Shown: positions 91-63,178 of the stretch, one piece after another
Position numbering within the stretch: position 1 is the stretch's first letter
How the letters are laid out: each line of letters opens with the position of its first letter
From: Sulfolobales archaeon
GTDB lineage: Archaea; Thermoproteota; Thermoprotei_A; Sulfolobales; AG1
Length of the DNA: 64,000 nucleotides
Direction: 5' to 3'
Assembly: GCA_038867615.1 (NCBI GenBank)
Contig: JAWBYA010000001.1
Location: 128,001 to 192,000 of the forward strand
Notes under the pieces: model-generated
Seen by the model: only the letters and a program-made list of their open reading frames with translations
The model's database searches: none
What the model was told of the DNA's origin: nothing
Program-made: the position numbers and the translations under genes

Positions 91-1530
91 TTGGATACAC
101 TAGCTGGGAGTGAGAGGGAGAAGATAGATGTCGAGAGGATCAAGGGGGCTTTCGAAGAGATAGGTCTAGAGACCAGGCGACAGGATATCGATGTGGCTTT
201 ATGGGAGCATGGTGAGTGCTTTGTTGATGATATTAAATGCGTCCCCATACCCCCAACGCCTGGAGGGTTTGTAGAAGGTGTTTTGACAAGCGATATAGGT
301 TCTTGCAGTGATAGGGTTTTAATAGCACCGACGACGAGCTTTCCGGATAATATGTGGAATATATATAATGAGGCTGTTGAGAGGGGTGCGAGGGCTGTTA
401 TATTCTATGACCATTACCCCTCTAGGTATAGGAAGATAGTTGTCTCTGGGGTTTGGAGCTATGGGTTGAGGGTTAGATCTCCGGCACCTATACCGTCTGT
501 CCATATAAGGCTTGAGGATGCTGTCCCCCTGATCAGAAGGGGTATTGGTAAGAAGGTATCGATCAGCGTTGCAACAAGGATCAGGATGTCGAGGGGATCT
601 AACGTGGAGGCTATAATACCGGGCAAGAGCGAGGGATCGATTCTAGTGTCAGCCCACCATGATAGGTGGTTCGACAGCTATAGGGATAACACTGTTGGTG
701 TGGAGACTCTCCTCCAAATAGCCCTGCATAGCAGGAAGCTTAGAACGCCTAGGCATGAGATAAGGCTGGTAAGCTTCACAGCAGAAGAGATCGGGGATCC
801 CGGGATGCCTGCCTGGTACTGGGGATATGGGTCTAGATCCTATGCCGCAAGCATAGATGCTAATAACATACTGATCGGGTTAGTAATAGATACGGCTCAC
901 AAAACCCCCTTAAGGATCTCCTATACATCGCCAGACCACGCATATAAGATCTTTGGAAGACTAGATCTAGATATAGAGCTAGAGGGTTATGGACACCCAT
1001 ATACAGACGCCCCCTCGCTATGGATGCGGGGGATACCTACTATAACAATCCATAACCTCCAGGATCTCTACCCAATATACCATACGGATCTAGATGTTAG
1101 GGAGGGCTATAGAGGCTTTCCATCGATATTGGGGAAAGAGATCCTGGGGATACTGCTAGACCTAGATCCGAAGGGCGTGGGGGCTGAATACCTTCTCAAG
1201 GATCTAAAGGCTAGGATGCCATACGAGCTCTTCAGGAGGATCGAGGAGAGGGCTTCTAACAAACCCTACGAGCTTGCTAGATGCGTGAACATGGTTACAA
1301 TGAGGCCTCTCTTCATAGGCAGTTATAGGGAGCTTTATAAAGACATGCTCACAGATCCTTTCCCCTCATGGTACGCTCTTGCAAGTGCTTCTAAAGGATC
1401 TAGGGAGCAGGTAGTGATCCCTGGTGATGAGAGGATCATATATGGAGGGGGAGGGGCTGAGGAGAGGGGTAAGATACTTAGCGAGGCTATCGCCGAGGTT
1501 GAGGAGATGCTTAGATGTATATCCACATAG
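91..1530 (+). CDS. M28-family metallopeptidase with PA domain
   Basis: 479-aa ORF with SAHHD, DN and FTAEEIG Zn-binding motifs, a YHT..D C-terminal motif and a PA-like 'GARAVIF' segment. Confidence 0.75.
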   Translation: MDTLAGSEREKIDVERIKGAFEEIGLETRRQDIDVALWEHGECFVDDIKCVPIPPTPGGFVEGVLTSDIGSCSDRVLIAPTTSFPDNMWNIYNEAVERGARAVIFYDHYPSRYRKIVVSGVWSYGLRVRSPAPIPSVHIRLEDAVPLIRRGIGKKVSISVATRIRMSRGSNVEAIIPGKSEGSILVSAHHDRWFDSYRDNTVGVETLLQIALHSRKLRTPRHEIRLVSFTAEEIGDPGMPAWYWGYGSRSYAASIDANNILIGLVIDTAHKTPLRISYTSPDHAYKIFGRLDLDIELEGYGHPYTDAPSLWMRGIPTITIHNLQDLYPIYHTDLDVREGYRGFPSILGKEILGILLDLDPKGVGAEYLLKDLKARMPYELFRRIEERASNKPYELARCVNMVTMRPLFIGSYRELYKDMLTDPFPSWYALASASKGSREQVVIPGDERIIYGGGGAEERGKILSEAIAEVEEMLRCIST

Positions 1531-1532
1531 CT

Positions 1533-2939
1533 TTATAGAAGTATAGAGGGCGATCCTGGTGTTGCATACACACATCTGATCCCAGAACCCTGTAGATCAC
1601 GGCTCTTGGGATCTATGCTTAAGATCTTCTTGGAATCAACTATAACGATCCTATCCTTCCCACTAAGCCTAGCGATCATATCGACCCCGAGTCCTTTATA
1701 AGCACTATGATCTGTTACCACTATCACACCATCAGCCCCCCTCAAGGCTTCTTCGAGATTGCTGGTAAGCCTCACGGCCAAGCCTTGTCTCCCGCTCCAG
1801 CTCTTTACATAGGGATCGTGGATCACTATGTCTCTAACACCCCTTCTAGCGAGATGCTCCACCACGCCATATGCTGGTGAGTTCCTATCATCATCAACAT
1901 CACCCTTATAAGCTAGCCCTAGAATCGCGATCCTAGCCTCTCTAGCATCGATCCCGAGGGTTTCGAGCTCCTCAACAAGGATCCTTACCACATAGCCCGG
2001 CTGATCCTCGTTAACCCTCCTAGCCCTAATCATAGCGGAGTTCCAGACCCAGTCCTCGCCAACACTCCAGGCGAGTAGGTATGGCTGATATGGGAGGGAG
2101 ACGCCTCCGACACCGCTTCCAGGGCTATGGATATCTATATAGGGGTTTGTTTTGGAGACCCTTATCACCTCCCATATATCTACTCCAAGCTTTCTCGCGG
2201 CTCTGGCAAGCTCGTTTGCTATGGCTATGTTTGCATCCCTATACACTCCCTCGGCGATCTTCTCGAACTCTGCTGCTGTTGAGCTGCTCATCACTATAAC
2301 ACCCCCATAGATCTCTTTAAACAGGATCTCGAGGATCTTTGGGCTTTTCTGATCAACGCCCCCAATGATCTTTGGATACCTGCTAGAAAGATCCTCGAAA
2401 ACTTTCTCAATACCAACCCTCTGGGGGCTGTATGAGAGCCCGAAGTCTTTCCCACAAACCATGCCCGATAGATCCTCAAGGATCCTCCTAACCCTCGTCG
2501 CAGTAGTCCCTGGAGGCACTGTTGTTTCGAGAACAACAATATCTCCAGCAGATAGCCCCATAGCTATGGTCTCAACAGCCTTATCCACCGCTGTGAATAC
2601 AGGACCCCTGGATCCCCAGTTGAGGGGTACGTTGATCATTTTAACATCGCTCCTCCTAGAAGCCTCAACACCATCATAGCTCAGCTCTAACAAACCCTCT
2701 CTATAACCCTTAGCTATAAAATCCCTAACCATGTTATCAATATGCCTTATAGAGCCTCTCTCTATCTCCCTAAGCCTCTCCCTATTCTCATCATAACCAA
2801 TAACCCTGAAACCCCTCGATATAAGCACGGCTGCCACAGCAGCACCAACATAACCCAGCCCGTATACTGAGAACACCACCCTCCTCTCCCTAGCAAGCCT
2901 AGCCGCTTCCTGAAGATCCGCAAAATAGATCTTCAACAC
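1533..2939 (-). CDS. Nucleotide-sugar dehydrogenase family protein (UDP-ManNAc/UDP-Glc dehydrogenase-like), atypical active site
   Basis: GLGYVG Rossmann motif, ETTVPPGTT, AEFEK, GLAYKGDVDD.RNSP; canonical GGHC motif reads GGVS. Confidence 0.85.
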   Translation of the reverse strand: MLKIYFADLQEAARLARERRVVFSVYGLGYVGAAVAAVLISRGFRVIGYDENRERLREIERGSIRHIDNMVRDFIAKGYREGLLELSYDGVEASRRSDVKMINVPLNWGSRGPVFTAVDKAVETIAMGLSAGDIVVLETTVPPGTTATRVRRILEDLSGMVCGKDFGLSYSPQRVGIEKVFEDLSSRYPKIIGGVDQKSPKILEILFKEIYGGVIVMSSSTAAEFEKIAEGVYRDANIAIANELARAARKLGVDIWEVIRVSKTNPYIDIHSPGSGVGGVSLPYQPYLLAWSVGEDWVWNSAMIRARRVNEDQPGYVVRILVEELETLGIDAREARIAILGLAYKGDVDDDRNSPAYGVVEHLARRGVRDIVIHDPYVKSWSGRQGLAVRLTSNLEEALRGADGVIVVTDHSAYKGLGVDMIARLSGKDRIVIVDSKKILSIDPKSRDLQGSGIRCVYATPGSPSILL

Positions 2940-3160
2940 TAAATCCCCAAACGAGTATAGAACCCGATATTATTATAAACATGTGGGTTTAGTGGAAAGG
3001 ACTAATTCGACATAACTTGATTCGTGCCTTTAGCCATAGGTTGATGGAGCTTCTATAAGATATTGATATTAAGGATCTAGTAGAGGAATTGATATAACAA
3101 GTTATAACTTAAGGTACGCTTATGCATGGGGGACTAGGTTTTTACTCTGATGATCCTTAG

Positions 3161-3652
3161 TTATACATCGCTTAAGCCTATTATGTAGAGATAATATGTT
3201 CCTATCCTGGCTGGTGACGATACCCTCATGGTTTTGACTTCTTTCCACCCGGAGATTTCGAAGTCGAGGCTGATTATCCTTGTACCCTTTTTAAGCTCTG
3301 CCTTGAGTTTGGGTTTCAGGAGATCGTTAACGCTTCTGAGGAGATACATGTAGACAACGGTAGCATCGGATAGATCTACTCTGAATATATCGTCCCTCAC
3401 AAACCTTATCATATGATCCACGCCCTCGGCTTGAGCGTTGGTCATGGCTCTTTTGATGAGCTCTGGGTTTAGCTCGACGCATACCGCTCTAGCCCCCCTT
3501 TTTGCTGCAGCTATCACTATCCTTCCATCTCCACATCCAAGGTCGTATAAAATATCGCCTTTACCCACGTTCGCCAGATCTAGTGCCTGTTCGATGAACT
3601 CTTCCCTTGTAGGGACCCAGGGAACCCTTATACCCTCGTAGTAGCTTACCAA
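3161..3652 (-). CDS. Class I SAM-dependent methyltransferase, aKMT/FAM173-like protein-lysine methyltransferase
   Basis: PWVPT, YDLGCGDGR and VVYMYL motifs; ORF is open to 3715 but TTG at 3652 has a GAGGGG RBS. Confidence 0.75.
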   Translation of the reverse strand: MVSYYEGIRVPWVPTREEFIEQALDLANVGKGDILYDLGCGDGRIVIAAAKRGARAVCVELNPELIKRAMTNAQAEGVDHMIRFVRDDIFRVDLSDATVVYMYLLRSVNDLLKPKLKAELKKGTRIISLDFEISGWKEVKTMRVSSPARIGTYYLYIIGLSDV

Positions 3653-3770
3653 GCTATTCCCCCTCAAGTAGAGAGAATATCTGCGGCTAATAATCTTTAT
3701 CCACATAACTATCAACAGATCTAAGCTCTCCTGGCTTTTATCCTCGCAGCGATATTTTTCCCGGGGTTTT

Positions 3771-4820: not shown

Positions 4821-4858
4821 GGATTTCTCCTTGTAGGATTCGCGCCTAACCAATATAA

Positions 4859-5272: not shown

Positions 5273-5480
5273 CTCTTATCCTTAGTCTCGACTATATTTG
5301 GATAGCCCTTACTAATAGCTCTCTTGCGCTGCTTCGTCTTATTGCTGCTAGGGCTTTAAGATGGGTAATATACCACCTTACCTCCTAGCATATCTGGTAA
5401 TACTGGTTTCTCAATAGCGATCCTTAAAGATCTTGGACTTGATATTTATTACTCCCTTAGTTTTTTTTGAGGGTAAAAGT

Positions 5481-15888: not shown

Positions 15889-17295
15889 TTGACAAGCTTC
15901 CTTGAAAAAATCCTCTCCCCAGCCTACTCGCCAGATCTGGATGAGCTCTACCTACTACCCGGGAAAGCGGATCTAGAGCCAAGCCAGATCGATATTTCAA
16001 CATATTTTACGAAAAACATAAGGCTGAAGATCCCTTTGGTATCCTCGCCAATGGATACTGTTAGTGAGTGGAGGTTAGCAGTATCTATAGCGCTAATGGG
16101 TGGTGTGGGGGTTATTCATAGAAATATGTCTGTGGAGGAGCAGGTGAGGAACCTTGAGATGGTTAAAAGCTTTCCCCCAATACCGCTAGAGGATCTATAT
16201 CTCCTTGAGAGGGAACCGTGTGGAAGGGCTATCGATGCTATGAGGAAAAAGGGTGTTAGGAACATGCCTGTAATAGATCCCACAGGATCTTTTAGGGGAT
16301 ACGTGAGGTACAGCGATCTTCTAGAATCCTGTAGAGATGGATCGACACCGATCAATAGATTCATAACCCCAGGCGTCTCATTCGACCTACCCCTAGCCAG
16401 AGAGGCTGTTAAATACATAGCCAGGGGCGAGGGCGATGTGATCGCTATAACCAACGGGGGGATCTATGTTGGTAGTGTAAGTGTGCATGGGGCTATGGAG
16501 GCTATAGATCCTGTTCTCGATGATGATGGGAGACTCTTGGTAGCAGCAGCCATAAACCCGATCGATATTGAGAGGGCCAGAAGGCTTGATAGGCTTGCCG
16601 ATGCAATAGTATCTGATGTTGCCCACTACCATAACAGCGAGATCCTGAGGGCCAGCTCAAAGCTCGTTAAAGAGATATCGACAGACTTTGTGGCAGGCAA
16701 TATAGGGACTGCAGAGGCTGCGCTAGACGCTGTAACACATATCGACAGGATAGATGGTTTTAGGGTTGGGGTGGGAGGCGGATCTATATGTACAACACCC
16801 AATGTAGCCGGGGCTTATGCACCAACCATCTGGAGCGTTGCCAGCGTGAGAGATGCTCTTGAGGCGCAGGGCCTCAGAATCCCCTTGATAGCCGACGGGG
16901 GTCTTAGAAGCGCCTCTGATATAGTTAAGGCTCTTGCCGTGGGTGCTAGCACAGCTATGGCGGGCTATATCTTCGCCGGTACAGACGAGGCTCCTTCGGA
17001 GCTTATAGAGGTGGGGGGAGAGCTTTATAAGCAGTATAGGGGTATGGCTAGTATTACATCTATGATGAGGAGGTTCTCTATGGATAGGTATGCTAAGATC
17101 GTTAAAAACATACCAGAAGGTGTAGGAGGCCTAGTACCTTACAAGGGATCTGCTAGATCTGTTATTAGGGAGGTTGTTGAAGGTATAAGGATAGCTATGG
17201 GTTATGCCGGTGCCAGGAATATAGAGGATCTATGGGCTAAGGCTAGATTCATCAAGGCTAGTAAGAAGAAAACCCTAGGGGGTCGCGATGGCTGA
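15889..17295 (+). CDS. guaB: IMP dehydrogenase with CBS domains
   Basis: SSPMDTV, IHRNM, GGGSICTT catalytic Cys, ADGG, YRGMAS; adjacent to guaA. Confidence 0.92.
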   Translation: MTSFLEKILSPAYSPDLDELYLLPGKADLEPSQIDISTYFTKNIRLKIPLVSSPMDTVSEWRLAVSIALMGGVGVIHRNMSVEEQVRNLEMVKSFPPIPLEDLYLLEREPCGRAIDAMRKKGVRNMPVIDPTGSFRGYVRYSDLLESCRDGSTPINRFITPGVSFDLPLAREAVKYIARGEGDVIAITNGGIYVGSVSVHGAMEAIDPVLDDDGRLLVAAAINPIDIERARRLDRLADAIVSDVAHYHNSEILRASSKLVKEISTDFVAGNIGTAEAALDAVTHIDRIDGFRVGVGGGSICTTPNVAGAYAPTIWSVASVRDALEAQGLRIPLIADGGLRSASDIVKALAVGASTAMAGYIFAGTDEAPSELIEVGGELYKQYRGMASITSMMRRFSMDRYAKIVKNIPEGVGGLVPYKGSARSVIREVVEGIRIAMGYAGARNIEDLWAKARFIKASKKKTLGGRDG

Positions 17296-18838
17296 GGGGA
17301 ATAGGGATTACGATTCAGTCATCATAGTAGATTTCGGAGGGCAGTATACGCATCTGATAGCCAGGAGGATCAGGGAGCTCGGTGTTTATAGCGAGATAAT
17401 CCCGGCCAGGGATCTCTCCAGAGAGGTTTTCGAGAGGATCTCGCCCAAGGCAGTTGTTCTCTCGGGAAGCCCTGCAAGTGTTCTTGAGCACGAGCCCCCC
17501 ATGCCTCCCAAATGGATCCTCGATATAGATATACCTATACTCGGGATCTGCTATGGGCACCAAGCCCTGGCTAGAATGCTTGGAGGTAGGGTATCGAGGG
17601 GTGTTGGAGAGTATGGGGGAGCTCGTATCAGGATCGTTAGGAGAGACGCTATATTCGAGGGCTTCGGAGAGGTTGAGGAGGTGTGGATGAGCCACTCCGA
17701 CTATGTTGAGAAACCACCTAGGGATGCCGAAATACTCGCAGTATCGGAGGATACTGGGTATATAGCTTCTTTCAGGATCTCTGGGAAACCTATCTATGGT
17801 GTTCAGTTCCACCCCGAGGTTAGCCATACTGTGAAGGGGAGAGTGCTTCTCGACAACTTTCTAAGACTAGCTGGTGCTAGGAGGGAGTGGAGGCCTAGCG
17901 GTACGGTCGATAGAATCGTTAACGAGATCTCTAGAAGCATAGGTTCTGGAGAAAAGGTTCTCTGTGCCGTGAGTGGTGGGATAGATTCGACAGTAACAGC
18001 CTTATTAGTCAAAAGGGCTGTGGGGGATAGGCTGGTAACAGTATTTGTGGATCACGGGCTCTTGAGGGAGGGAGAGGCTCAGGAGGTTCTTGAAAGGCTT
18101 AGAAAACTGGGCCTCAACCCAGTCTTCATAGATGCTTCTAAGATGTTCTTAGAAGCCCTCAGGGGTGTGAGGGATCCTGAGGAGAAGAGGAGGATAATTG
18201 GAAAGCTCTTTGCAGATATATTTAAAGAGATCGTTGATAGAGATCCTGATATAAAGTGGCTTGCACAAGGGACTACTTACCCAGATGTTATTGAGAGCGG
18301 CTCTTCTCCCCACGCGGCTAGGATAAAGACACACCATAATGTAGGGGGTCTCCCAAGGGATCTTGGTTTAAAGGTGATCGAGCCTCTGAGAAGCTTTTAT
18401 AAAGATGAGGTGAGGGAGCTGGCAAGGGTTTTAGGGGTTCCTGAGGAGGTGATCAAGAGGCATCCTTTCCCAGGACCAGGGCTTGCTGTTAGGATTGTTG
18501 GTGAGGTTAGTGAGGAGAAGCTGAGGATCTTGAGGAGGGCTACTAAGATCGTTGAGGAGGAGTTAAAGACAGCAGGGATCTATGATAGTCTCTGGCAAGC
18601 ATTCCCAGTGCTCTTAGAGAGCAGCTGGGTTGGTGTTAAGGGTGATGCTAGGAGGGAGGGTTATATAATTATAATAAGGGCTGTTGAGAGCGAGGATGGC
18701 ATGACCGCTGAGTGGGCTAGGATCTCTCACGAGATCCTAGATAGGATCTCGAAGAGGATAACCCGGGAGCTGCCTGAGGTAACCATGGTTGCCTACGCTA
18801 TAACGCCCAAACCGCCCTCGACTATAGAGCCTCAGTAA
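17288..18838 (+). CDS. guaA: GMP synthase (glutamine-hydrolysing)
   Basis: DFGGQY, GICYG, QFHPE, SGGIDS, IKTHHN, HPFPGPG, KPPSTIE. Confidence 0.98.
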   Translation: MAEGNRDYDSVIIVDFGGQYTHLIARRIRELGVYSEIIPARDLSREVFERISPKAVVLSGSPASVLEHEPPMPPKWILDIDIPILGICYGHQALARMLGGRVSRGVGEYGGARIRIVRRDAIFEGFGEVEEVWMSHSDYVEKPPRDAEILAVSEDTGYIASFRISGKPIYGVQFHPEVSHTVKGRVLLDNFLRLAGARREWRPSGTVDRIVNEISRSIGSGEKVLCAVSGGIDSTVTALLVKRAVGDRLVTVFVDHGLLREGEAQEVLERLRKLGLNPVFIDASKMFLEALRGVRDPEEKRRIIGKLFADIFKEIVDRDPDIKWLAQGTTYPDVIESGSSPHAARIKTHHNVGGLPRDLGLKVIEPLRSFYKDEVRELARVLGVPEEVIKRHPFPGPGLAVRIVGEVSEEKLRILRRATKIVEEELKTAGIYDSLWQAFPVLLESSWVGVKGDARREGYIIIIRAVESEDGMTAEWARISHEILDRISKRITRELPEVTMVAYAITPKPPSTIEPQ

Positions 18839-22553: not shown

Positions 22554-23558
22554 TTAAACAAATTTTATTCTCAATTCCGGTTTTGAATCGCTTATCCCCA
22601 GGATCTTTTTCACTTCTTCCGCCATGCTTCTAGCCAGTGGTGGTGGTACTGCCTCTCCCACCTGGTTGAACTGGTCGTCTTTTCCCCCCATGAATACGTG
22701 ATCGTCTGGGAAGCCCATGAGTCTTGCCTGCTCCCTTACTGTAAGGATCCTATCTTCGTATGGGTGTATAAACCTTGATGACCCCATAACTGTTGGTGCT
22801 ATGTCGTTTGGATCTAATCTTATGTAGTTTGGAAGCATTCTACCGCCTGCTCCTTCGTAGAGGTATAGCGATCTCCCCTTACGGATCTTTGAGATCTTCC
22901 TCATCTTCCTAGCAGAGATGCTTATATATTCATGGTTGGGGATACTACCATCTCCAGGAGGCGGTAGGTCTGCTAGAGCCTCTTCCACAGTGATCCTCTT
23001 ATCACTCTTAGGCGGGTCTATCTTTATATTGGATATGAAGACCCTTGTCCTTTTACTAGGCGTCCCATGCTCCTCGGCTTTGAGCACGTTGAAATAGATC
23101 TCTGGATAGCCAGATCTTCTGAAAAGATCCTCTATAGCTTCTTTTATGGGGCTATGCATTATTGCTGGGACATTCTCCATTATAAACACCTCTGGCTCTA
23201 GCTCGGATACGATTCTTATGAAGTGGAGTACAAGCTTACCCATGGGGTCTTTGTATAGCCTGTCAAGGGGTTCTTTCATCCTCTCCGGGTTAGCCCCTGT
23301 GAATGGCTCGCACGGAGGGCCTCCTATGATTATCCTCGGCCTCGCACCAAGTATAGATATTATATCACCGGGATCTATCTCCTGGATATCTTCTTGGAGA
23401 GCAACAGCTCCTGGGAAGTTAGCCTTGAAGGATCTTATAGCGTTCCTATCGCTATCAATACCCATGATTATCTCAAAACCAGCATCTGCGAAACCCCTTG
23501 AAAAACCCCCGGCTCCTGAGAATAGGTCAAGAACCCCTGTTATAAAGCCTCTTCTCAT
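22554..23558 (-). CDS. C5 cytosine DNA methyltransferase (orphan)
   Basis: DLFSGAGG, GGPPCEPF, ENVP, R.RVF, LTVREQARLMGFPDD, QVGEAVPP; overlaps the 3' end of tfe. Confidence 0.92.
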   Translation of the reverse strand: MRRGFITGVLDLFSGAGGFSRGFADAGFEIIMGIDSDRNAIRSFKANFPGAVALQEDIQEIDPGDIISILGARPRIIIGGPPCEPFTGANPERMKEPLDRLYKDPMGKLVLHFIRIVSELEPEVFIMENVPAIMHSPIKEAIEDLFRRSGYPEIYFNVLKAEEHGTPSKRTRVFISNIKIDPPKSDKRITVEEALADLPPPGDGSIPNHEYISISARKMRKISKIRKGRSLYLYEGAGGRMLPNYIRLDPNDIAPTVMGSSRFIHPYEDRILTVREQARLMGFPDDHVFMGGKDDQFNQVGEAVPPPLARSMAEEVKKILGISDSKPELRIKFV

Positions 23559-24102
23559 CGGCCTCAACACTCCTTCTAAGCCTCTCCACAAGCTCTTTCA
23601 AGCTCTTCACGGTCATAGCGTTATTAACTGGCTCTAGCTGTGCACCGCATCTGGGGCATTTAAAGTCATTAATCATTGCATCATCGAATGAGAATCGTTC
23701 TTTCTCACTGCTGCAGGAGCTGCATTGGAAGATATATGTCTCCTCATACTTCAACCTCTCCGCGAGCTTGTTAAGAACAGTCTTCTTTCTCGAGATAAGG
23801 ATCTGGGGTAGATATTCTGTGTTAGCCCTCCAGAAGTATATGTAATAACCAGTCTCCCTATCCCTAACCCTCCTCGAGGTCACGAACCCGTGTTCCGAGA
23901 GTTTGTAGAGTATTCTCCTCACCTCGCTAACATGTAATCCAGCGTATATTGCAAGGTCCTCGTCCTGAACCTCTCTACCTATTTTTAAAAGCGTTTCGAA
24001 AACGAGCTTCGAGGTCTCGCCAAAAGTGCTCTTTATTATGCTCATTATGGCCTCCATGCTAGCGCTTCTAGGCTTCTCCCCCATGTTTTTTCCAGACACC
24101 AC
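23527..24102 (-). CDS. tfe: Transcription factor E (alpha)
   Basis: Winged helix EVRRILYKL...YYIYFW plus Zn ribbon CSSC...CPRCG. Confidence 0.92.
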   Translation of the reverse strand: MVSGKNMGEKPRSASMEAIMSIIKSTFGETSKLVFETLLKIGREVQDEDLAIYAGLHVSEVRRILYKLSEHGFVTSRRVRDRETGYYIYFWRANTEYLPQILISRKKTVLNKLAERLKYEETYIFQCSSCSSEKERFSFDDAMINDFKCPRCGAQLEPVNNAMTVKSLKELVERLRRSVEADEKRLYNRGS

Positions 24103-31078: not shown

Positions 31079-31939
31079 TTATGGGGGCTTGCTAGGGGGT
31101 ATAGCTAGGATCCTATTCAGGGCGGCGGATACGTATCTCTCGTCCTTCTCGATCATTATGAAACTCCTTCCAAGTCTTTTTGCAACGACCCCTGTGGTTC
31201 CAACCCCGGCCATCGGGTCTAGGATAAGATCTCCTGGTTTTGTTGAGATCGTGATTATCCTCTCCATGAGCTCTTCAGGCTTCTGTGTTGGGTGTAACCT
31301 TCTACCCTTCTCATCCTTAAGCCTCTCAGTCCCTGAGCATATGGGTATTCTCCACACGTTATATGCGAGCTTCTTACCCCAATCTTTATAGCAATAATTC
31401 CTCGCAGCCTCCTTGTTAAACGTGTATTTCTTCGAATCCCTATCCCTCACAGCCCATATGAGTGTCTCTGTAGCGTTTGTGAATCTTACTCCAAGCCAGT
31501 TGGGCATGGGGTTTACCTTAAACCAAATAACGTCGTTCAATATCCAGAAACCAAGATCCTGCATAATCCTTCCTATTCTGAAGATATTATGGTAAGTCCC
31601 GATAGCCCAGATGGTGGCGTTGGGCTTCATAACACGCCTAACCTCTGTTAGACACGAGGCTATGAATCTATCGTACTCCTCAAAGCTTGGGAAGATATCC
31701 CAATACTCCTCAGGGCTCTCAACCAACGTTCTAACACCCCACCTAACAAGCCTCTTACCCCTAGGCAGCTGCAGGAAATAGGGAGGGTCGAAGAAAACCA
31801 TATCAACAACGCTAGAGGGGAGTCTCTTCAGAACATCAACACAGTCGCCATGAATAATGCTGTCAAGCACCTCTCCAAGCTCTACACGATCACCAAGCTC
31901 GCTGGATTTTACAAGCCTCACAGAACCGTTCAGAAGCAA
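31079..31939 (-). CDS. Orphan beta-class N6-adenine DNA methyltransferase (CcrM/M.HinfI-like)
   Basis: DPPYFLQL, GTYHNIFR.G, WILNDVIW.K.NPMPN, HPTQKPE, LDPMAGVGTT; no restriction enzyme adjacent. Confidence 0.9.
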   Translation of the reverse strand: MLLNGSVRLVKSSELGDRVELGEVLDSIIHGDCVDVLKRLPSSVVDMVFFDPPYFLQLPRGKRLVRWGVRTLVESPEEYWDIFPSFEEYDRFIASCLTEVRRVMKPNATIWAIGTYHNIFRIGRIMQDLGFWILNDVIWFKVNPMPNWLGVRFTNATETLIWAVRDRDSKKYTFNKEAARNYCYKDWGKKLAYNVWRIPICSGTERLKDEKGRRLHPTQKPEELMERIITISTKPGDLILDPMAGVGTTGVVAKRLGRSFIMIEKDERYVSAALNRILAIPPSKPP

Positions 31940-41660: not shown

Positions 41661-41870
41661 GTAATTATGGGGTTTGCTTTTTTATAAAAATAGGTGTCTC
41701 TTTACTGTGGTATTTGCAAGGGGCGGTCTCCTTTCGAGATTTAGGCATCTCTCGAAGAACTTCTCTTAGTCAATGCCTCTAGCTTTATACATTAGTATAG
41801 ATTTTTATAGAGAGATATATTGAAATATTTAAGTTTCTGTGAGGCTGTTATAATAAAGGTGGGTGTACCA

Positions 41871-44255
41871 ATGCATAGTGAGCACCATGGTGCAGAGGCG
41901 CATCACGAGCATGAGGAGCCTTTCTATAGGAGTATAAGGGGTATTTTGACCACAACGAATCATGCCAACATAGGGGTTATGTATATTGCTGTTGCGCTAA
42001 TAAACCTGCTCCTTGCCGGTATCTCGGCATTCTTTATAAGGATGCAGCTAGCGGGAGTAGGTGTTGTGGATCCTGGGAGGTATTTGGCGGTAGTAACGTT
42101 GCATGGGACGCTTATGATCTTCTTTGTAGTGATGCCCTTCTTTGCTGGGATAGGTAACTATCTTATCCCCAAGATGGTTGGTGCGCCTGATCTCTACTGG
42201 CCTAAGATAAATGCTCTAGGGTTCTGGATGTTCGCGTCGAGCTCTATACTGATATGGCTAACCCTTCTGGATGCAGGGAACCTCCAGATAGGCTGGACAG
42301 GCTATGCCCCGCTATCTGTGAGGCTTCCAGGATTTTCAGTGGATCTCTGGGCCCTCAGCCTCTTCCTCGCGGGGATCTCGTCTATACTTGGTGCTGTTAA
42401 CTTCTTCCTAACTGTTATGAGGCTTAGAAACCCAAGCCTAAAGATCTCGAGACTCCCGCTCTTCGTATGGTCATTCCTGGGCGCACAGCTAATAATACTC
42501 TACGCGCTACCTCCCTTCGGTATGGTGCTAGCGATGATCTTTCTCGAGAGGAATCTCGGACTCCCATTCTTCGATCCTAAGTATGGTGGTGATGCGATTC
42601 TCTACCAACACATATTCTGGTTCATGGGGCATCCAGAGGTATATGTTCTAGTCCTCCCAGCTATGGGGCTTGTTTCAGAGATCCTGCCGAGGATGGCTAG
42701 GAGACCGATATATGGTTATAAGGCAATAGCTGTGTCATCTATAATGATCGTGACAATGAGTTTCTTCGTATGGGCTCACCACATGTTCACAACGGGGCTG
42801 GGTTTACTGGTCCTAACACCATTCATGATAGCAACAATGGCTGTAGCCATACCGTCGGGGATCAAGGTCTTTAACTGGATAGCAACCCTCTATAACTCGA
42901 GGATATGGCTTAGGACACCCATGCTCTACGTACTCGGCTTCCTAGCGTTCTTCATAATAGGGGGTATAACAGGTGTGTTCTTCCCCGTGATCCCGGTCAA
43001 TATACCATACCAGGATACATACTTTGTTCTAGGTCACTTCCACTATGTGGTCAATGCTATATTCATGGCAATAGCAGCGGCTCTATTCTACTACTTCCCA
43101 CACATGACGGGTAAGATGTATAGCGAGACTCTGGGTAGGCTGAGCGCTATTCTATACACAATAGGTGGTGCTATAACCTATACAGCAATGCTCTCCCTAG
43201 GCTATCTAGGAATGCCTAGAAGATACTACCAACCCCCACCGATCCCTGGGATGGAGTTCTACCATCAGCTAGCCACCGCAGGCTCGATTATACTCGCAAT
43301 AGGTACTCTTCTAATATACGTAGCCATTATTCATGGTCTTATATGGGGTAGGCCTGTTAAGAATAGAAACGATCCATGGGCGGCTGCCAAAATAGGCCAG
43401 CCAGACTTCCACCCAGCTGCACATACAGACGGCTCCGGGCTGCTCCACTACAGCCCCCACCCATGGATGTCTATCACAGGGATAGCGTCAGCATTACCTC
43501 TGGTGGGTGTTATGTTCATTATAAAGTGGGGCGACTGGATCGTAGGGTCGCTAATGCTTGCCATATTCATAGGTATAGTTCTTGCGTGGGCTTATTCAGA
43601 GTATTTTGCAAGGCCTAGAAGTGCTAATGGAGCCCTAGCAGGGCTTCTAGATCTTAGGCCCTGGAGCTCGAGGCTGGGGGCATTGGGACATGATCCAATG
43701 CTTGCAGTGGCTCTAATCATATTCTCTGAGGTATTCCTCTTCGGGACATTGATAGCTTCTTACTTCTACTACTGGTTTAGAAACCCATCATGGCCTCCCC
43801 CCGGGACGCCTCATCTAGATACCTTGGTGCCCATCATAAACACGGTGATCCTGCTGAGCAGCGGTGCAGTGATGCATCTTGGATATAGTTACTTCAAGAG
43901 GGGAGATATTGAGAGCTTTAGAAGCCTCGCCGTGGTAACGATAATCCTGGGGTCTGTATTCCTCGCTGGACAGGTAGTAGAGTATGTGAGATCAGGGATG
44001 TCCCCATGGCTTAACCCATTCGCAGCAACGTTCTATAGCCTTACAAGCACCCACGGACTCCACGTGATCATGGGCTTGATAGCCATATCCCTCCTAATAG
44101 TGAGATCCTATAACGGTACGCTTCCAACCAACGAGAGAGGGAATTCGGTGGTAGAGGCTGTAACCGTATATTGGCACTTCGTAGACCTGATATGGATTGT
44201 GCTTGTAACCATACTCTACCTACTCCCATTCGGACTACCAGTACTTGGAGCATAG
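41871..44255 (+). CDS. Heme-copper oxidase, subunit I + subunit III fusion (A1-type)
   Basis: HGTLM, GWTGYAPL, WFMGHPEVY, WAHHM, HFHY, PRRY; C-terminal subunit III motifs SEVFLF, HGLHV, YWHFVD. Confidence 0.93.
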   Translation: MHSEHHGAEAHHEHEEPFYRSIRGILTTTNHANIGVMYIAVALINLLLAGISAFFIRMQLAGVGVVDPGRYLAVVTLHGTLMIFFVVMPFFAGIGNYLIPKMVGAPDLYWPKINALGFWMFASSSILIWLTLLDAGNLQIGWTGYAPLSVRLPGFSVDLWALSLFLAGISSILGAVNFFLTVMRLRNPSLKISRLPLFVWSFLGAQLIILYALPPFGMVLAMIFLERNLGLPFFDPKYGGDAILYQHIFWFMGHPEVYVLVLPAMGLVSEILPRMARRPIYGYKAIAVSSIMIVTMSFFVWAHHMFTTGLGLLVLTPFMIATMAVAIPSGIKVFNWIATLYNSRIWLRTPMLYVLGFLAFFIIGGITGVFFPVIPVNIPYQDTYFVLGHFHYVVNAIFMAIAAALFYYFPHMTGKMYSETLGRLSAILYTIGGAITYTAMLSLGYLGMPRRYYQPPPIPGMEFYHQLATAGSIILAIGTLLIYVAIIHGLIWGRPVKNRNDPWAAAKIGQPDFHPAAHTDGSGLLHYSPHPWMSITGIASALPLVGVMFIIKWGDWIVGSLMLAIFIGIVLAWAYSEYFARPRSANGALAGLLDLRPWSSRLGALGHDPMLAVALIIFSEVFLFGTLIASYFYYWFRNPSWPPPGTPHLDTLVPIINTVILLSSGAVMHLGYSYFKRGDIESFRSLAVVTIILGSVFLAGQVVEYVRSGMSPWLNPFAATFYSLTSTHGLHVIMGLIAISLLIVRSYNGTLPTNERGNSVVEAVTVYWHFVDLIWIVLVTILYLLPFGLPVLGA

Positions 44256-59519: not shown

Positions 59520-59521
59520 GG

Positions 59522-60169
59522 CTATATAACCCCCGCAGCTTCTATGAGCTTTCTAACAAGCATGGGATCCTTCTTTCCGAAAGAGGTCTCAACACCGCTG
59601 CTCACATCTATCACATCAGGCCTCACAGGCTTGAGGTTAGAGATATTGTTGGGCGTTATGCCGCCAGCTACGCCGCAGGGTCTATAGGATCTACATGCTG
59701 CTGTGTAAACACTTATTGGGAGCTTTAGCCCCGAGGCTTCGGCAGGTGCAGTGTCTTTTGGAGCATCGAATAATACATACTCAATAGCGTTGCTAAAGAT
59801 CGTGAGGTGTTTTGTGGTGCTCTCCATATCGGGGTTGGTATTATTCTTAATAATGATTACTGGTATTACTCTGTAACCCATTGTCGACAGGATCTCTATA
59901 TCCTTAGGGCTATAACTATAGTGGAGCTGGAGGGTCTCGATGGGATCGAGCCTCTCTATATATTTATCCAGGACATCTCTACCGGTGATCACGGCAACGA
60001 CTCTGGATTTCGATAGCGTTCTGCTTGCATCTATAATCATATCAATCCCCACAGCCCTTCTAGAACCCTCGAGGATCATCCCGACATATCGGGCTCCAGC
60101 AGCCTCTACTGCTATAGCATCCTCTATGGACATGACACCGCAGATCTTAACCGCTGCCAAGGCCAGCAA
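59522..60169 (-). CDS. trpF: Phosphoribosylanthranilate isomerase
   Basis: VKICG, LQLH, AGGI.P.N, DVSSGVE. Confidence 0.9.
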   Translation of the reverse strand: MLALAAVKICGVMSIEDAIAVEAAGARYVGMILEGSRRAVGIDMIIDASRTLSKSRVVAVITGRDVLDKYIERLDPIETLQLHYSYSPKDIEILSTMGYRVIPVIIIKNNTNPDMESTTKHLTIFSNAIEYVLFDAPKDTAPAEASGLKLPISVYTAACRSYRPCGVAGGITPNNISNLKPVRPDVIDVSSGVETSFGKKDPMLVRKLIEAAGVI

Positions 60170-61166
60170 GCCTCCTAGCAGTAGCTACGATCCTGCCGAG
60201 CTTCCTCCACGCCGAACCACTAACTATTTCTCTATAGGCTTTCTCATACCCCTCCTCTATGGAGCCGGCTTCGCCAGCAACGTAGAGGGCTAGTCCAGCG
60301 TTGATCGCTATGAAGGATGTTAAGCCCTTATCCTCGCCCCTCAGGCCCCGCACCCCCTTTTCAATGATCTCCTCCCTGGTTTGTCCAGATATGTGGTTGA
60401 TCGGGATCTCCTCTAAGCCAAGGGTCTTTGGAGATATTGTTATCTCCTCCACAGATCCCCTCTTGATAATAGCAATGCTAGGCCCGCTTGGTGAGAGCTC
60501 ATCCATACCTGGATGGCCTGTTATAACAGCGAATCTGCGTAGATCTATCTCCTCCACAGCTCTATAGATCAGTTTAACCATGTTTGGGCTGGGTACACCT
60601 ATAACCTGGATCTTTGGGTTGGCTGGGTTGGCTAGAGGCGCTGCTAGGTTGAATATTGTTCTTATCCCAAGCCTCTTCCTTACAGGTGCTACCGCCTTCA
60701 AAGCTTGGTGATACTTAGGTGCGTAGAGATAGGCATACCCCTCAAGCCTGAGAAGCTCTTCAGCAACATCTGCTCCATGCTCTATCGGGTATCCGAGAGC
60801 CTCCATAAAGTCGGCCGATCCAACGAGGCTGGAGAAGCCTCTGTTACCGTGCTTTGCAACGGGAACCCCTATGGATGCCACTACTATTGATGCTAGCGTT
60901 GATGCATTGATAGTGTTTAGACCATCGCCCCCGGTTCCAACAATATCCATGGCATCCCCAACCCTTACTTTTACAGCATTGTCTCTCAGTGCTCTCACAA
61001 AACCCCTGATCTCCTGGGGCTCCTCGCCCTTCACCCTCAGCCCCATAAGTATTGCTGAGATCTCTATCGGATCCACAGCTCCTCTGAGCATATCTACGCA
61101 TAGATTGTAGGCCTCATCCTCTCTGAGCCCTTGTCTCTCAGCTATTCTAGCTATATAGCTAGCCAT
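60147..61166 (-). CDS. trpD: Anthranilate phosphoribosyltransferase
   Basis: GTGGDG, KHGNR, GSAD, RT.FN. Confidence 0.95.
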   Translation of the reverse strand: MASYIARIAERQGLREDEAYNLCVDMLRGAVDPIEISAILMGLRVKGEEPQEIRGFVRALRDNAVKVRVGDAMDIVGTGGDGLNTINASTLASIVVASIGVPVAKHGNRGFSSLVGSADFMEALGYPIEHGADVAEELLRLEGYAYLYAPKYHQALKAVAPVRKRLGIRTIFNLAAPLANPANPKIQVIGVPSPNMVKLIYRAVEEIDLRRFAVITGHPGMDELSPSGPSIAIIKRGSVEEITISPKTLGLEEIPINHISGQTREEIIEKGVRGLRGEDKGLTSFIAINAGLALYVAGEAGSIEEGYEKAYREIVSGSAWRKLGRIVATARRLAGLGSG

Positions 61167-61168
61167 AT

Positions 61169-62428
61169 CTACACCCCGTAGAAGTCCTGGTCATAGAGTC
61201 CATGTCCACTCAGGTTCACTAGAATCGTTATCTCCCTATCACCAGCCTTCTTAGCCTCCTCTATAGCGGCTGCTATTGCGTGGGCACTCTCGGGTGCCGG
61301 TAATATCCCTTCGGATCTGTAGAATAGTAGTCCAGCCTCCCTAGCCTGGTCGGGTGTATAGGCTCTGGGTTCTACAAACCCCTCCATAATCAGTATTGAG
61401 AGGCTTGGAGCGACGCCATGGTATCTCAGCCCTGCTGCCCTTATAGATGGGGGGATGAAGTTCCTGCCAAGCGTGAGCATCTTTATCATTGGGAGGGCTC
61501 CGCCTGTGTCGGGGTGTTCATACATATAGGCTCCTTTGGTCATCTTTGGAACCAGGCTGCTCTCTGCACCAACTATTCTGGGGGGCTTCTCTCCCCTCCT
61601 AATAGCCTCGCCGTAGAATGGGTAGGAGATCCCGGCTAGGTTTGACCCGCCGCCTACACAGCCTATTATTACGGAGGGCTCTTCACCCTCTCTCCTCATC
61701 TGCTCCATAGCCTCAAGGCCTATCACGCTCTGGTGGATCAATACGTATTCCATAACACTCCCAGGGATATACCTCTTAGACCAAGGATCCTTGAGGACTG
61801 TCTCAACAGCCTCGCTGATCGCTATACCAAGACTGCCTGGATGGTTTGGGTCTTGTTTTAGGAAACCCCTGCCAGTCTCTGTTAGATCCGAGGGGCTTGG
61901 ATAAACCTCAGCCCCGTTCTCCATCATGAGCTTTACTCTCTTACTCTTAGACAGATAGCTAGATCTGGTCATAAAGATCTGTGACTTCAGTCCCAGCATA
62001 TTTGAGGCTATAGATACAGCCAGTCCCCACTGCCCCGCACCAGTCTCGGTAACTACAACGCCATAGCCTTCTTTATATGTGTAGTATGCCTGGGCGACAG
62101 CGGTGTTGAGTTTATGGCTCCCGCTTGGTAGGGAGCCTTCGTATTTATAATAGATCTTTGCCCGTGTGTTGAGGAGCTTCTCAAGCCCTCTAGCCCTTAG
62201 GAGTGGTGTTGGTCTCCCTATCTCTCTATATATGTTTCTAACATCTGCTGGGATCTCTATATATCGTTCGAAGGAGAACTCCTGGTCTATTAGGTGGTGT
62301 GGGAGGATCTCTTTAAGCCTGTCTACGAGCGATGACTCAGAGTCTAGAGGATCTATAGGGGGTGGGACTGGTCTTGGTAGGTCTGGTGCTATGTTATACC
62401 AATACCTCGGGATCAGATCCTCGCCCAT
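61169..62428 (-). CDS. trpB: Tryptophan synthase beta chain, TrpB2 type
   Basis: WYNI..DLP, GSHKLNTA, TETGAGQWG, GGGSN, APESAHA, NLSGHG. Confidence 0.95.
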   Translation of the reverse strand: MGEDLIPRYWYNIAPDLPRPVPPPIDPLDSESSLVDRLKEILPHHLIDQEFSFERYIEIPADVRNIYREIGRPTPLLRARGLEKLLNTRAKIYYKYEGSLPSGSHKLNTAVAQAYYTYKEGYGVVVTETGAGQWGLAVSIASNMLGLKSQIFMTRSSYLSKSKRVKLMMENGAEVYPSPSDLTETGRGFLKQDPNHPGSLGIAISEAVETVLKDPWSKRYIPGSVMEYVLIHQSVIGLEAMEQMRREGEEPSVIIGCVGGGSNLAGISYPFYGEAIRRGEKPPRIVGAESSLVPKMTKGAYMYEHPDTGGALPMIKMLTLGRNFIPPSIRAAGLRYHGVAPSLSILIMEGFVEPRAYTPDQAREAGLLFYRSEGILPAPESAHAIAAAIEEAKKAGDREITILVNLSGHGLYDQDFYGV

Positions 62429-62434
62429 CGCTCC

Positions 62435-63178
62435 TCAACCCCTTATCGCGTTCGAGAGGCTTCTAACGAAATCCACAGCATTGCTGGGATCTCTACCAAG
62501 TCTCCTGATCACCTCGCTCCCCACCACAGCTATATCAGCACCCCCTCTGAGTATCGCTATAAGCCTGTCGGCGCTGTTTATGCCGAAGCCAACTGCTAGT
62601 GGGGCTCTGCCTTTTATTAGCTCCCTAGCTATCGATATGTTTCTCAGAACCTGTATTGGAAGGCTAGTCCCTGTTGATGCCTGGAGTCCGAGATAGATCA
62701 TGTATGGCTCTAGCTCTGAGATCTTCTCTACAAGCTTGTAGGGGGTTTTTGATGATATAAAGAAGCACGGCTCGAGACCATAATCTCTCGAAGCCTTTGT
62801 ATATAGATCAAGCTTCTCTGGGTACTCTATCAGGAGGTCTGGTGTTAGGAGACATTTGAAACCGAGATCCGCTATAGATCCTAGGATCTTGCTGAGATCC
62901 GCGCCTATCTCTGAATAGTACGCTAGGGCTACTAGATCGCATTTAAGCTTTGACAGTTCCGAGTAGCTCTTTATATGCTGGGGCAGAACACCTTTTCCAA
63001 GGATCTCCCTATGGGCTTTCCGTATAACGGGGCCATCGTATATGGGGCTGCGTGTCGGTATTCCTATTTCTAGCATATCTATAAGGTTGCTGATCAAGCC
63101 GATATATTCGAGGAACGTTTTGGGTTCAGGATATCCTAGGGGTATGTATATACCTAACCTCTTACCATTTAGATCCAT
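62435..63178 (-). CDS. trpA: Tryptophan synthase alpha chain
   Basis: GYP, EIGIP...YDGPVI, PDL, VGFGI, VVGS. Confidence 0.92.
   Translation of the reverse strand: MDLNGKRLGIYIPLGYPEPKTFLEYIGLISNLIDMLEIGIPTRSPIYDGPVIRKAHREILGKGVLPQHIKSYSELSKLKCDLVALAYYSEIGADLSKILGSIADLGFKCLLTPDLLIEYPEKLDLYTKASRDYGLEPCFFISSKTPYKLVEKISELEPYMIYLGLQASTGTSLPIQVLRNISIARELIKGRAPLAVGFGINSADRLIAILRGGADIAVVGSEVIRRLGRDPSNAVDFVRSLSNAIRG

Follow-up and report, generated by a model that had tools for sequence, protein, structure and literature searches.

The tetramer GATC is over-abundant throughout this genome, and its excess is a family-wide trait of one archaeal family. Short palindromes in prokaryotes are mostly neutral or avoided. 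The explanation we favor, with a probability of roughly 0.55, is that a weak and uniform pressure at the DNA level keeps GATC about 2.7-fold over-abundant, with a purine before it and a pyrimidine after it mildly preferred. This pressure would have arisen in the ancestor of the family and would still be acting. A full-text literature search, judged by titles and abstracts, found no published description of a GATC excess in Crenarchaeota.

The window, which is the whole 64,000-nt stretch of DNA analyzed, is GATC-rich from position 1 to 64000. It holds 767 GATC sites (12.0 per kb; 39 to 79 per 5 kb), 411 RGATCY sites, and 414 CTAG sites, and the GATC sites occur in coding and non-coding DNA and in genes on both strands. 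When 100 dinucleotide-preserving shuffles of the window were used as a null, the mean number of RGATCY sites was 156.3 (sd 11.4, maximum 180) and none of the shuffles reached 411. Hand counts given for three patches in a preliminary description of this DNA were all exact on recount. The densest of these, at positions 781–1260 within a peptidase M28 ORF (91–1530, forward strand), contains 13 GATC, 10 RGATCY, and 8 CTAG sites. The patch at 17341–17820, within a GMP synthase ORF (17288–18838, forward strand), contains 7 GATC and 5 RGATCY sites, as does the patch at 62761–63006.

The abundance that was proposed from the window is borne out across the genome (2.22 Mb, GC 46%, 28 contigs, 94% complete). 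There are 23,526 GATC sites, or one per 94 bp, and GATC ranks first of 256 tetramers with an observed/expected ratio (O/E) of 2.74 at zero order. A second-order Markov model likewise puts it first (O/E 1.50). When synonymous codons were shuffled within each gene, so that the protein and the codon usage of that gene were both preserved, 20,072 GATC sites were observed against 12,178 expected (O/E 1.65, z 123, rank 1 of 256), and RGATCY was enriched 2.09-fold. The excess therefore persists under the Markov and amino-acid-preserving nulls that had been suggested as checks. The dicodon-aware null proposed in the preliminary description as a refutation cannot serve that purpose as stated: a dicodon-preserving null would retain GATC by construction, since any tetramer fits within a dicodon.

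The sites had been described as falling in different codon phases and on genes of both strands, and the shuffle confirms an excess in all three phases (O/E 1.17, 1.84, and 2.12). In DNA outside the ORF calls, GATC is again the top tetramer (O/E 2.60 at zero order, 1.65 under Markov-2), and gaps of up to 300 bp between ORFs give values of 2.65 and 1.70; the ORF calls are crude ones made in this analysis, and such “non-coding” DNA may include some small genes. Because GATC survives an amino-acid-preserving null, in every phase and in non-coding DNA too, the pressure is on DNA and not on protein or codon usage. Its effect on codon choice was correctly noticed for isoleucine, where a preceding G-ending codon goes with an ATC share of 52.7%, versus 17.5%–21.5% after codons ending in A, C, or T, while ATA is used for 55% of isoleucines overall. 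Likewise, G-ending codons are chosen 2–3 times more often before ATC. A preference of aspartate for GAT was considered as a GATC-specific effect and rejected, since GAT is preferred equally before A. Conversion of AATT to GATC was also rejected. No tetramer is rarer than AATT in this genome (0.25), but AATT is just as scarce (0.20–0.40) in three families that have no excess of GATC, and thus its rarity is unrelated to GATC.

The enriched unit is the GATC tetramer, to which the purine and pyrimidine flanks add a modest and independent half-site preference. The preliminary description had treated RGATCY as the iterated unit, but the hexamer is not cooperative: RGATCY accounts for 51% of GATC sites, which is what the purine frequencies of the two half-sites give when multiplied (0.50). 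The top GATC-containing octamers occur at 10–18 times the zero-order expectation and at 0.9–1.4 under a fifth-order Markov model, and the best palindromic octamer with GATC, AGGATCCT, has a ratio of 0.88. No consensus longer than 4–6 bp around GATC was found in this octamer test. Spacing between sites is geometric (CV 1.04; median 63 versus 65 expected), with 9,273 spacings in multiples of 3 versus 6,687 and 6,493 in the other two classes. The density stays flat at 10–11 sites per kb through the starts and ends of genes, and of the 918 genes with a length of 900 nt or more, 900 exceed 3.9 GATC per kb.

CTAG had likewise been called abundant and often interlocked with GATC. Its abundance is real at zero order (O/E 1.54 for the whole genome) but vanishes under Markov-2 (0.94). 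The interlock does not hold up, as CTAGATC and GATCTAG (22 and 18 occurrences in the window) are at chance level (O/E 0.85–1.02). GANTC is unremarkable, with an O/E of 0.97–1.17 under Markov-3.

Related genomes were surveyed widely with AGATCT, one of the four RGATCY hexamers, and with TCTAGA as the control word. Each of the 11 family genomes that are at least 80% complete carries AGATCT at 1.56–2.97 per kb, and the highest value in 263 other genomes of the class is 0.97 per kb. In a sample of the phylum, the two family genomes included rank at the top of 401. The AGATCT excess is absent in 43 genomes of a family presumed to be Sulfolobaceae (0.2–0.6 per kb, mostly 0.8–1.8 times the count of the control word). 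For GATC itself, sampled O/E values are 2.2–3.0 in two genera of the family spanning GC 37%–46%; three other families give 1.10, 0.54, and 0.39. Proteins shared between the genera of the family are only about 52% identical. It is unusual for a palindrome to be over-used more than any other tetramer, and still more unusual for this to be kept up across a family this diverged.

GATC is also conserved between close relatives. In an alignment of 365 kb with relative G003 (93.5% identity), none of the 256 tetramers is better conserved than GATC, which stands at 90.1% versus a mean of 75.4%. Phase-matched ranks are 7/228, 20/240, and 2/227, and the non-coding rank is 4/132. In a three-way alignment of 228 kb with G002 as the outgroup, in which changes on two terminal branches were polarized by parsimony, GATC is lost at a lower rate than any other of 241 words (0.054 versus a mean of 0.112). 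The pressure on GATC is thus currently acting.

At matched synonymous sites, polarized losses of GATC are 2.3–4.6 times slower. The change of ATC to ATT after G occurred at 48 of 2250 sites versus 36 of 724 matched sites (0.43×, p 1.5e-4), that of ATC to ATA after G at 19 of 2250 versus 16 of 724 (0.38×, p 0.005), and the loss of a four-fold G before ATC at 14 of 592 versus 636 of 5820 (0.22×, p 3.5e-14). In another comparison, transversion losses are reduced to 0.44× toward GATA/TATC and 0.36× toward GAGC/GCTC. Gains are altered far less: ATT to ATC changes that make GATC are raised 1.65-fold (27/248 versus 42/636, p 0.037), and the other polarized gain ratios are 1.03× and 1.43× (not significant). 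For unpolarized transitions in non-coding DNA, gains are 1.32× and 0.90×, and losses are 0.31× and 0.22×. Slowing loss threefold is alone enough to yield a 2.7-fold excess.

The preliminary description had spoken of a process that creates these sites. Parsimony counts 262 losses versus 152 gains, so creation is not what dominates; the main effect is slower loss, with gains slightly raised. Such counts are biased toward net loss, and other abundant words have a similar gain/loss ratio of about 0.6, which suggests that the net loss is a polarization artifact or a general AT-ward drift. Four-fold divergence near GATC is 0.128 at distance 1 and 0.15–0.20 at distances 2–25, with 0.164 overall. The idea of GATC as a repair entry site that lowers mutation nearby was rejected, as there is no decay past the adjacent base and TATA and CTAG dip likewise at distance 1. 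At near-saturated divergence, where co-occurrence of GATC was scored within identical amino-acid pairs, the odds ratio is 2.07 in one comparison (rank 53/137; median of other words 1.87) and 1.28 in another (rank 70/99; median 1.46). In these two comparisons, individual GATC sites are retained no better than other words.

Two orphan methyltransferase genes are located in the window. The gene at 31079–31939 (reverse strand), which is surrounded by metabolic genes, codes for a CcrM-like beta-class N6-adenine DNA methyltransferase with a DPPY motif (PF01555, 191.7 bits). It matches the CcrM structure PDB 6pbd (E 1.7e-83) and scores 339.8 bits with the NCBIfam CcrM model, under the 830-bit cut-off of that model; by homology, its target is likely GANTC. 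The gene at 22554–23591 (reverse strand) codes for a C5-cytosine DNA methyltransferase and is the sole PF00145 match in the genome. We infer that it belongs to the pan-crenarchaeal CCWGG group described in PMC10609329. Orphan methyltransferase genes of the m6A and m4C types are present in the genome.

The distribution of methyltransferases was surveyed in 41 genomes, 14 from the family and 27 others. A permuted PF01555 enzyme (gene at C7:49101–50096 of genome G000), for which NCBIfam and PDB searches yield no specificity, is found in 14/14 family genomes and also in 8/27 others that lack the GATC excess. The CcrM-like enzyme is found in 9/14 family genomes, and two SPPY methyltransferase paralogs are found only in genomes G000, G002, and G003 and in some genomes outside the family. 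A link between the trait and any single methyltransferase by phyletic pattern was rejected, as none tracks the GATC excess in these genomes. Searches for enzymes that act on GATC elsewhere gave no match in the 94%-complete genome to Dam (PF02086), MutH (PF02976), or MutS_V (PF00488), with positive E. coli controls, nor to Vsr (PF03852) or the DpnII and MutH/Sau3AI families. Searches for the BglII and BamHI families were empty here, but they were empty in the controls too and so carry no information. NucS/EndoMS is present in this genome, in which the MutS family has no match.

The substitution data show that the pressure mainly retards the loss of GATC sites already present, at all four positions and in transitions as much as in transversions, with the gain of new sites slightly raised. 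Single sites turn over and only their density is held. In the explanation that we favor, this would reflect a fixation bias of about 1.5–2 scaled units per site, which could come from weak selection that favors a large number of GATC sites or from repair or gene conversion biased toward GATC. Such a bias requires a family-specific protein that reads GATC, and the most likely setting would be a putative orphan DNA-modification system together with its reader. Against this explanation, no GATC-reading protein was found and no methyltransferase tracks the trait. We suggest only tentatively a more specific form, in which an unrecognized GATC-reading system, comprising a non-Dam orphan modification enzyme and a reader, nickase, or repair factor, marks or processes “self” DNA in this family of hyperthermophile-related archaea and so imposes a HIP-like drive on the genome. 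If true, archaea would have their first case of a methylation-linked word drive, and GATC-based DNA transactions would have arisen independently in a lineage that has no MutS, MutL, or MutH.

A rather unlikely account is that mutation bias alone is responsible. GATC would be modified (e.g., as N6-methyl-A and/or N4-methyl-C on both strands) or better repaired, and so would suffer less conversion by heat damage; the excess would be a neutral equilibrium of functionless sites. The main effect is indeed slower loss (0.22–0.43×), with gains near 1 in both polarized and non-coding comparisons, and threefold slower loss predicts the 2.7-fold excess. The turnover of single sites, the orphan m6A-type and m4C-type genes, and the SMRT signal reported at AGATCC and GGATCY in S. 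acidocaldarius (PMC5809426) are also in its favor. Since gains are only weakly raised, a pure model of protection from mutation fits nearly as well as the favored one. However, transversions are cut as much as transitions, which base methylation is not expected to block; there is no zone of low divergence past the adjacent base, which argues against GATC as an entry point for better repair; and no methyltransferase can be assigned to GATC from its sequence. It is very improbable that the excess is merely a relic of a past process that enriched GATC in the family ancestor and is now unmaintained and decaying. The surplus of parsimony losses on the two terminal branches is what such decay would give, but a GATC site is lost less often than any of the other words compared, not at an average rate, and the ratio of gains to losses is shared with other abundant words. 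Moreover, the excess is equal in genera whose shared proteins have diverged so far that synonymous saturation would have erased it without a continuing force.

It is extremely unlikely that the excess merely follows from the usage of amino acids, codons, or codon pairs, which would place the cause at the level of translation. The largest class of sites is nnG|ATC (10,792 of 20,072 coding sites) and spacings favor multiples of 3, as this account would have it, but the synonymous-shuffle ratio, the presence of excess in all three phases, the equally strong non-coding excess (short gaps included), and its persistence in relatives from GC 37% to 46% all speak against it. Very unlikely also is a true HIP1-type element, that is, discrete functional sites selected for chromosome structure or gene transfer and accompanied by cognate orphan methyltransferases. 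GATC is an over-represented palindrome, lies at the core of HIP1, and is strongly conserved against the 93% relative; conservation of HIP1 has likewise been read as selection (PMC5861425), and HIP abundance reportedly tracks orphan methyltransferases (PMC4390886). The short consensus, the modest size of the excess, the geometric spacing, the background-level retention of positions at deep divergence, and the absence of a Dam family gene are at odds with such an element.

What is claimed in practice is modest: not a new element, but a genome signature for which there is evidence of active maintenance. The signature is simple enough to be used for binning genomes of the family, in which recently acquired DNA would appear as low-GATC islands. 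It also points to a lineage-specific GATC-reading protein where the known GATC enzymes are absent.

Among known systems, VSP repair in E. coli (Dcm/Vsr) is a DNA-level word bias that acts on T:G mismatches only. It resembles the present case in that one short palindrome-like word is raised and its one-step neighbors are lowered. A VSP-like drive was rejected here, given that Vsr has no match and transversion losses are also reduced 2–3 fold. The Dam-GATC systems of gamma-proteobacteria (Dam, MutH, SeqA) and the Dam-like orphans of several archaeal groups use the same tetramer, which is read there by orphan methylation, but this genome gave no match to the Dam, MutH, or MutS families. A restriction–modification target does not fit, as GATC is in excess rather than avoided. 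Over 200 genomes, the GATC ratio has a mean of 0.86 and a variance of 0.16 (PMC3077040, Table 1), so that 2.74 lies far beyond the usual range.

Sulfolobus acidocaldarius, probably of the same order, has m6A calls in the same RGATCY flank class, at AGATCC and GGATCY, with partial levels of 24%–61% in the data reported in PMC5809426. In contrast to the family studied here, the presumed Sulfolobaceae genomes have no AGATCT excess, and the signal has no enzyme assigned to it. According to PMC10609329, a methyltransferase once predicted for RGATCY in fact modifies CCWGG.

The preliminary description had asked whether this is an archaeal analog of cyanobacterial HIP1, and the analogy holds loosely. 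HIP1 (GCGATCGC) and the alternate cyanobacterial HIPs are also GATC-core palindromes that are lineage-specific, in excess genome-wide in coding and non-coding DNA, and conserved in related genomes. HIP1 itself is a GC-rich octamer with Dam-like and CGATCG orphan methyltransferases, a 10–90 kb periodicity, and a hyper-abundance of 15–300× (PMC5861425). Here, a tetramer is enriched 2.7-fold (1.5–1.65-fold under stricter nulls), and even RGATCY reaches only 2.09× in the synonymous shuffle; no palindromic consensus of ~8 bp is seen (AGGATCCT at 0.88), no Dam homolog was found in the 94%-complete genome, which does carry other orphan methyltransferases, and spacing is geometric. Site conservation is HIP-like at 93% identity (rank 1/256) and is lost near saturation (53/137 and 70/99). 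The two systems also share a debate over the source of the pressure, which for HIP1 has been attributed to selection on the basis of its conservation (PMC5861425) or to a methylation-dependent mismatch-repair drive linked to orphan methyltransferases (PMC4390886). The archaeal family provides a second, independent system in which selection and repair drive can be compared.

The window, positions 128001–192000 of contig C1, contains 767 GATC, 411 RGATCY and 414 CTAG sequences. Shuffled versions that preserve dinucleotide frequencies carry 156.3 ± 11.4 RGATCY sites (maximum 180) and none of 100 reaches 411, which confirms the RGATCY excess claimed in the preliminary description; its three local hand counts also proved exact on recounting. 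In the whole assembly of this Sulfolobales archaeon (2.22 Mb in 28 contigs, 94% complete, 46% GC), GATC occurs 23,526 times, or once per 94 bp. It has the highest observed/expected ratio (O/E) of all 256 tetramers at zero order (2.74), and the ratio is 1.50 under a second-order Markov model (Markov-2). At zero order, the top four hexamers by O/E each include GATC: AGGATC (6.55), AGATCC (6.15), AGATCT (5.89) and GAGATC (5.54).

The phylogenetic range of the trait was surveyed by counting AGATCT, one of the RGATCY hexamers, with TCTAGA as the control word and per-kb values calculated from rounded genome sizes. Among 274 genomes of the class that are at least 80% complete, AGATCT occurs at 1.56–2.97 per kb in all 11 members of the window's family, which belong to two genera; none of the other 263 exceeds 0.97. 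A third family genus, represented by two less complete genomes, shows 1.10 and 1.25 per kb and is only weakly above the control word (ratios 1.15 and 1.21). Of 401 genomes sampled evenly across the phylum, the two family members rank first, followed by a genus of another family (g205, represented by G566 and G594) at 1.1–1.24 per kb and a ratio to the control of ∼3.5. This genus could represent a weaker occurrence of the phenomenon that arose independently. In sampled stretches, GATC O/E is 2.2–3.0 in the two main family genera (GC 37–46%), 1.7–2.4 in the third, where samples are tiny, and 1.10, 0.54 and 0.39 in three other families. GATC is strongly avoided in G026, a genome from another family of the order, with an O/E of 0.39 and the last rank among the 256 tetramers under Markov-2. 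A GATC restriction system would be expected to leave this pattern, which is the reverse of that in the window's family.

An origin at the codon level was examined with 1,906 crudely called ORFs (minimum length 100 aa) that together span 85% of the genome. When synonymous codons are shuffled within each gene, preserving the protein and per-gene codon usage, GATC still ranks first of 256, with 20,072 sites against 12,178 expected (O/E 1.65, z 123; runner-up GGCT, 1.40). As the preliminary description had noted, sites fall in different codon phases, and all three show an excess (1.17, 1.84 and 2.12). GATC is also the top tetramer outside the ORF calls (2.60 at zero order, 1.65 under Markov-2, given the crude calls), and gaps of up to 300 bp between calls give 2.65 and 1.70. 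The suspected preference of isoleucine for ATC after a G-ending codon is borne out, at 52.7% compared with 17.5%–21.5% after A, C or T, and codons of four-fold amino acids end in G two to three times more commonly before ATC than before ATA or ATT. A codon-level artefact is thus contradicted by the shuffle and the noncoding DNA, and together with codon choice these results show that the pressure acts on DNA itself and not on protein sequence or codon usage. The proposed dicodon-aware null is unable to test the excess because it keeps every tetramer by construction. In the same coding DNA, 75% of Asp codons are GAT, and Phe and Asn favor the C-ending codon (TTC 64%, AAC 60%); since GAT is equally preferred before A and before C, GATC does not explain the Asp preference.

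The enriched unit is short. Octamers holding GATC reach 10–18-fold at zero order and 0.9–1.4 under a fifth-order Markov model, which reveals no long palindrome around GATC in this genome. The base before GATC is a purine in 70% of half-sites compared with 61% for other GA dinucleotides, and RGATCY makes up 51% of sites, as expected from multiplying the half-site frequencies. In the synonymous shuffle, enrichment is 2.09-fold for RGATCY and 1.30–1.38-fold for YGATCR, RGATCR and YGATCY. The flanks therefore contribute a real but modest, independent preference. Seven of the 20 top hexamers contain GATC, and some without it, such as AGCCCT (2.61) and GGCTTG (2.39), are equally enriched. The latter belong to a second overused word family around GGCT/AGCC, which includes TAGCCC (2.25) and GGGCTT (2.06); as tetramers, GGCT ranks second and AGCC (1.30) eighth. 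The reported abundance of CTAG holds at zero order (1.54) but not under Markov-2 (0.94), and CTAG is equally high in other families. Its supposed interlocking with GATC is at chance level (CTAGATC and GATCTAG, 0.85–1.02). GGCC is scarce (Markov-2, 0.58) and GGACC/GGTCC is the lowest pentamer (Markov-3, 0.64), which suggests restriction pressure on these words.

GATC sites are diffuse. Their spacing is geometric (CV 1.04; median 63, compared with 65 expected) with a weak 3-bp periodicity that comes from coding. Density is flat at 10–11 per kb over ORF starts, ends and flanks, the sole dip being 7.4 per kb immediately upstream of starts. Nearly all genes of at least 900 nt (900 of 918) exceed 3.9 GATC per kb, the most that a zero-order model can predict. 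When counted in 5-kb stretches, sites are overdispersed (variance 134, mean 53), and two islands, C1:460000–485000 (GC 33%–50%) and C10:20000–30000, have only 14–30. Both are likely to be recent acquisitions that have yet to adopt the host signature, in the latter case because it contains a gene for a 1,089-aa type IIG-like methyltransferase/nuclease.

How the excess is maintained was examined by alignment with the relative G003 (365 kb, 93.5% identity). GATC is the best conserved of 256 tetramers (90.1% conserved; tetramer mean 75.4%, sd 7.3) and is equally numerous in both genomes (4,020 and 4,036 sites). It ranks 7 of 228, 20 of 240 and 2 of 227 in the three codon phases and 4 of 132 in noncoding DNA. 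Per-site loss is 0.31–0.49 of the same-change average in five of six neighbor classes, transitions and transversions alike; the inner A/T transversion is the exception (1.0). Changes were polarized with a second relative, G002, as outgroup (89% identity; three-way alignment of 228 kb), and no word among the 241 is lost more slowly than GATC (rate 0.054; mean 0.112). At context-matched synonymous sites, ATC changes to ATT at 48/2250 sites after G and 36/724 after non-G (0.43-fold, p = 1.5e-4), ATC to ATA at 19/2250 and 16/724 (0.38-fold, p = 0.005), and a four-fold G is lost at 14/592 sites before ATC and 636/5820 before other codons (0.22-fold, p = 3.5e-14). The corresponding gains are ATT to ATC, 27/248 and 42/636 (1.65-fold, p = 0.037); ATA to ATC, 5/1072 and 16/3518 (1.03-fold, p = 1); and four-fold non-G to G before ATC and other codons, 9/308 and 551/26930 (1.43-fold, p = 0.31). 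Slower loss is the main effect, and a threefold reduction is sufficient for a 2.7-fold excess.

At greater distances, individual sites are not retained. Codon alignments were made for 167 gene pairs with G001 and G005 (63%–67% amino acid identity) and 224 pairs with G010 and G006 (52%–55%), all more distant relatives. Four-fold sites are near saturation, with the same base at 0.369 (0.283 expected) in the closer set and 0.335 (0.282) in the farther. In neither set is GATC co-occurrence within identical amino acid pairs stronger than that of other words: In the main phase, the closer comparison gives GATC an odds ratio of 2.07 (rank 53 of 137; median 1.87), and the farther one gives 1.28 (rank 70 of 99; median 1.46). 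Single sites turn over, and density alone is held.

The GATC excess is family-wide, uniform and DNA-level, and persists chiefly because GATC is lost more slowly at each of its four positions. A weak per-site fixation bias probably accounts for it, arising either because density is selected or because repair or conversion is biased, and such a bias would be imposed by a family-specific GATC-reading activity. The idea that these sites are being created does not fit the parsimony tally of 152 gains and 262 losses. Because other abundant words have similar ratios (∼0.6) and parsimony overcounts losses from a favored state, this tally is read as steady state or slight erosion. A decaying relic is contradicted by GATC having the lowest loss rate among words. 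Four-fold divergence is 0.128 at distance 1 from GATC, a dip also seen at TATA and CTAG, and 0.15–0.20 at distances 2–25 (overall 0.164). Thus, it does not fall with proximity beyond the adjacent base, which rules out GATC as a local repair entry point. A serious rival is purely mutational, with GATC protected so that it is lost more slowly without any fixation bias. This model remains serious because gains are barely raised; against it, transversion losses are reduced equally, and there is no protected neighborhood around GATC. For the fixation bias, a modification-linked system is the most likely, though unproven, setting.

Family searches of the assembly gave no match for Dam (PF02086), DpnII, MutH/Sau3AI, Vsr or MutS_V; searches for BglII and BamHI likewise found nothing, but are uninformative since their controls lacked matches too. 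NucS/EndoMS is present. The window encodes a CcrM-like DPPY methyltransferase (31079–31939, minus strand; PDB 6pbd match, E = 1.7e-83), an orphan since its gene is flanked by metabolic genes, for an aminotransferase and an FMN-dehydrogenase. It is 51%–56% identical to alphaproteobacterial homologs, is found in nine of 14 family genomes, and looks like an old interdomain transfer that was since kept. Unlike CcrM, it has no C-terminal domain (286 aa, compared with 366 in the solved CcrM chain), and GANTC, its likely target by homology, is unremarkable in the genome. The sole C5-cytosine methyltransferase gene (window 22554–23591, minus strand) also lies among metabolic genes. Its product probably corresponds to the CCWGG enzyme that PMC10609329 describes as pan-crenarchaeal, and CCWGG is unremarkable (Markov-3, 1.03). 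Two SPPY (m4C-type) paralogs (C1:437474–438370 and C2:362447–363310) occur, among 41 genomes, only in the closest three and some outsiders. A circularly permuted PF01555 enzyme (C7:49101–50096) is in all 14 family genomes and eight of 27 others, and four larger methyltransferases are also present. No methyltransferase tracks the trait across the 41 genomes. Elsewhere in the window, an 811-aa cytochrome oxidase subunit I and III fusion ORF with COX1 and COX3 domains (41820–44255, plus strand), whose end is overlapped by another ORF, points to an aerobic lifestyle. Among named genomes, the nearest relatives of one window gene lie in two MAGs labeled Sulfolobales archaeon.

A literature search, judged by titles and abstracts, found no published report of a GATC excess in Crenarchaeota. 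Table 1 of PMC3077040 gives a mean GATC ratio of 0.86 (variance 0.16) over 200 genomes. SMRT sequencing of S. acidocaldarius gave m6A calls at AGATCC and GGATCY that were partial (PMC5809426). According to passages of PMC10609329, CCWGG is the word modified by the enzyme formerly predicted for RGATCY, and Dam-like enzymes for GATC are retained in other archaeal groups, with Crenarchaeota not listed. The proposed analogy to cyanobacterial HIP1 is contradicted in the strict sense by the short unit, the geometric spacing and the turnover of sites. HIP1 is an octamer at 15–300-fold whose conservation has been interpreted as selection (PMC5861425), and HIP abundance is described as following orphan methyltransferases, with a methyl-dependent mismatch-repair drive proposed (PMC4390886).
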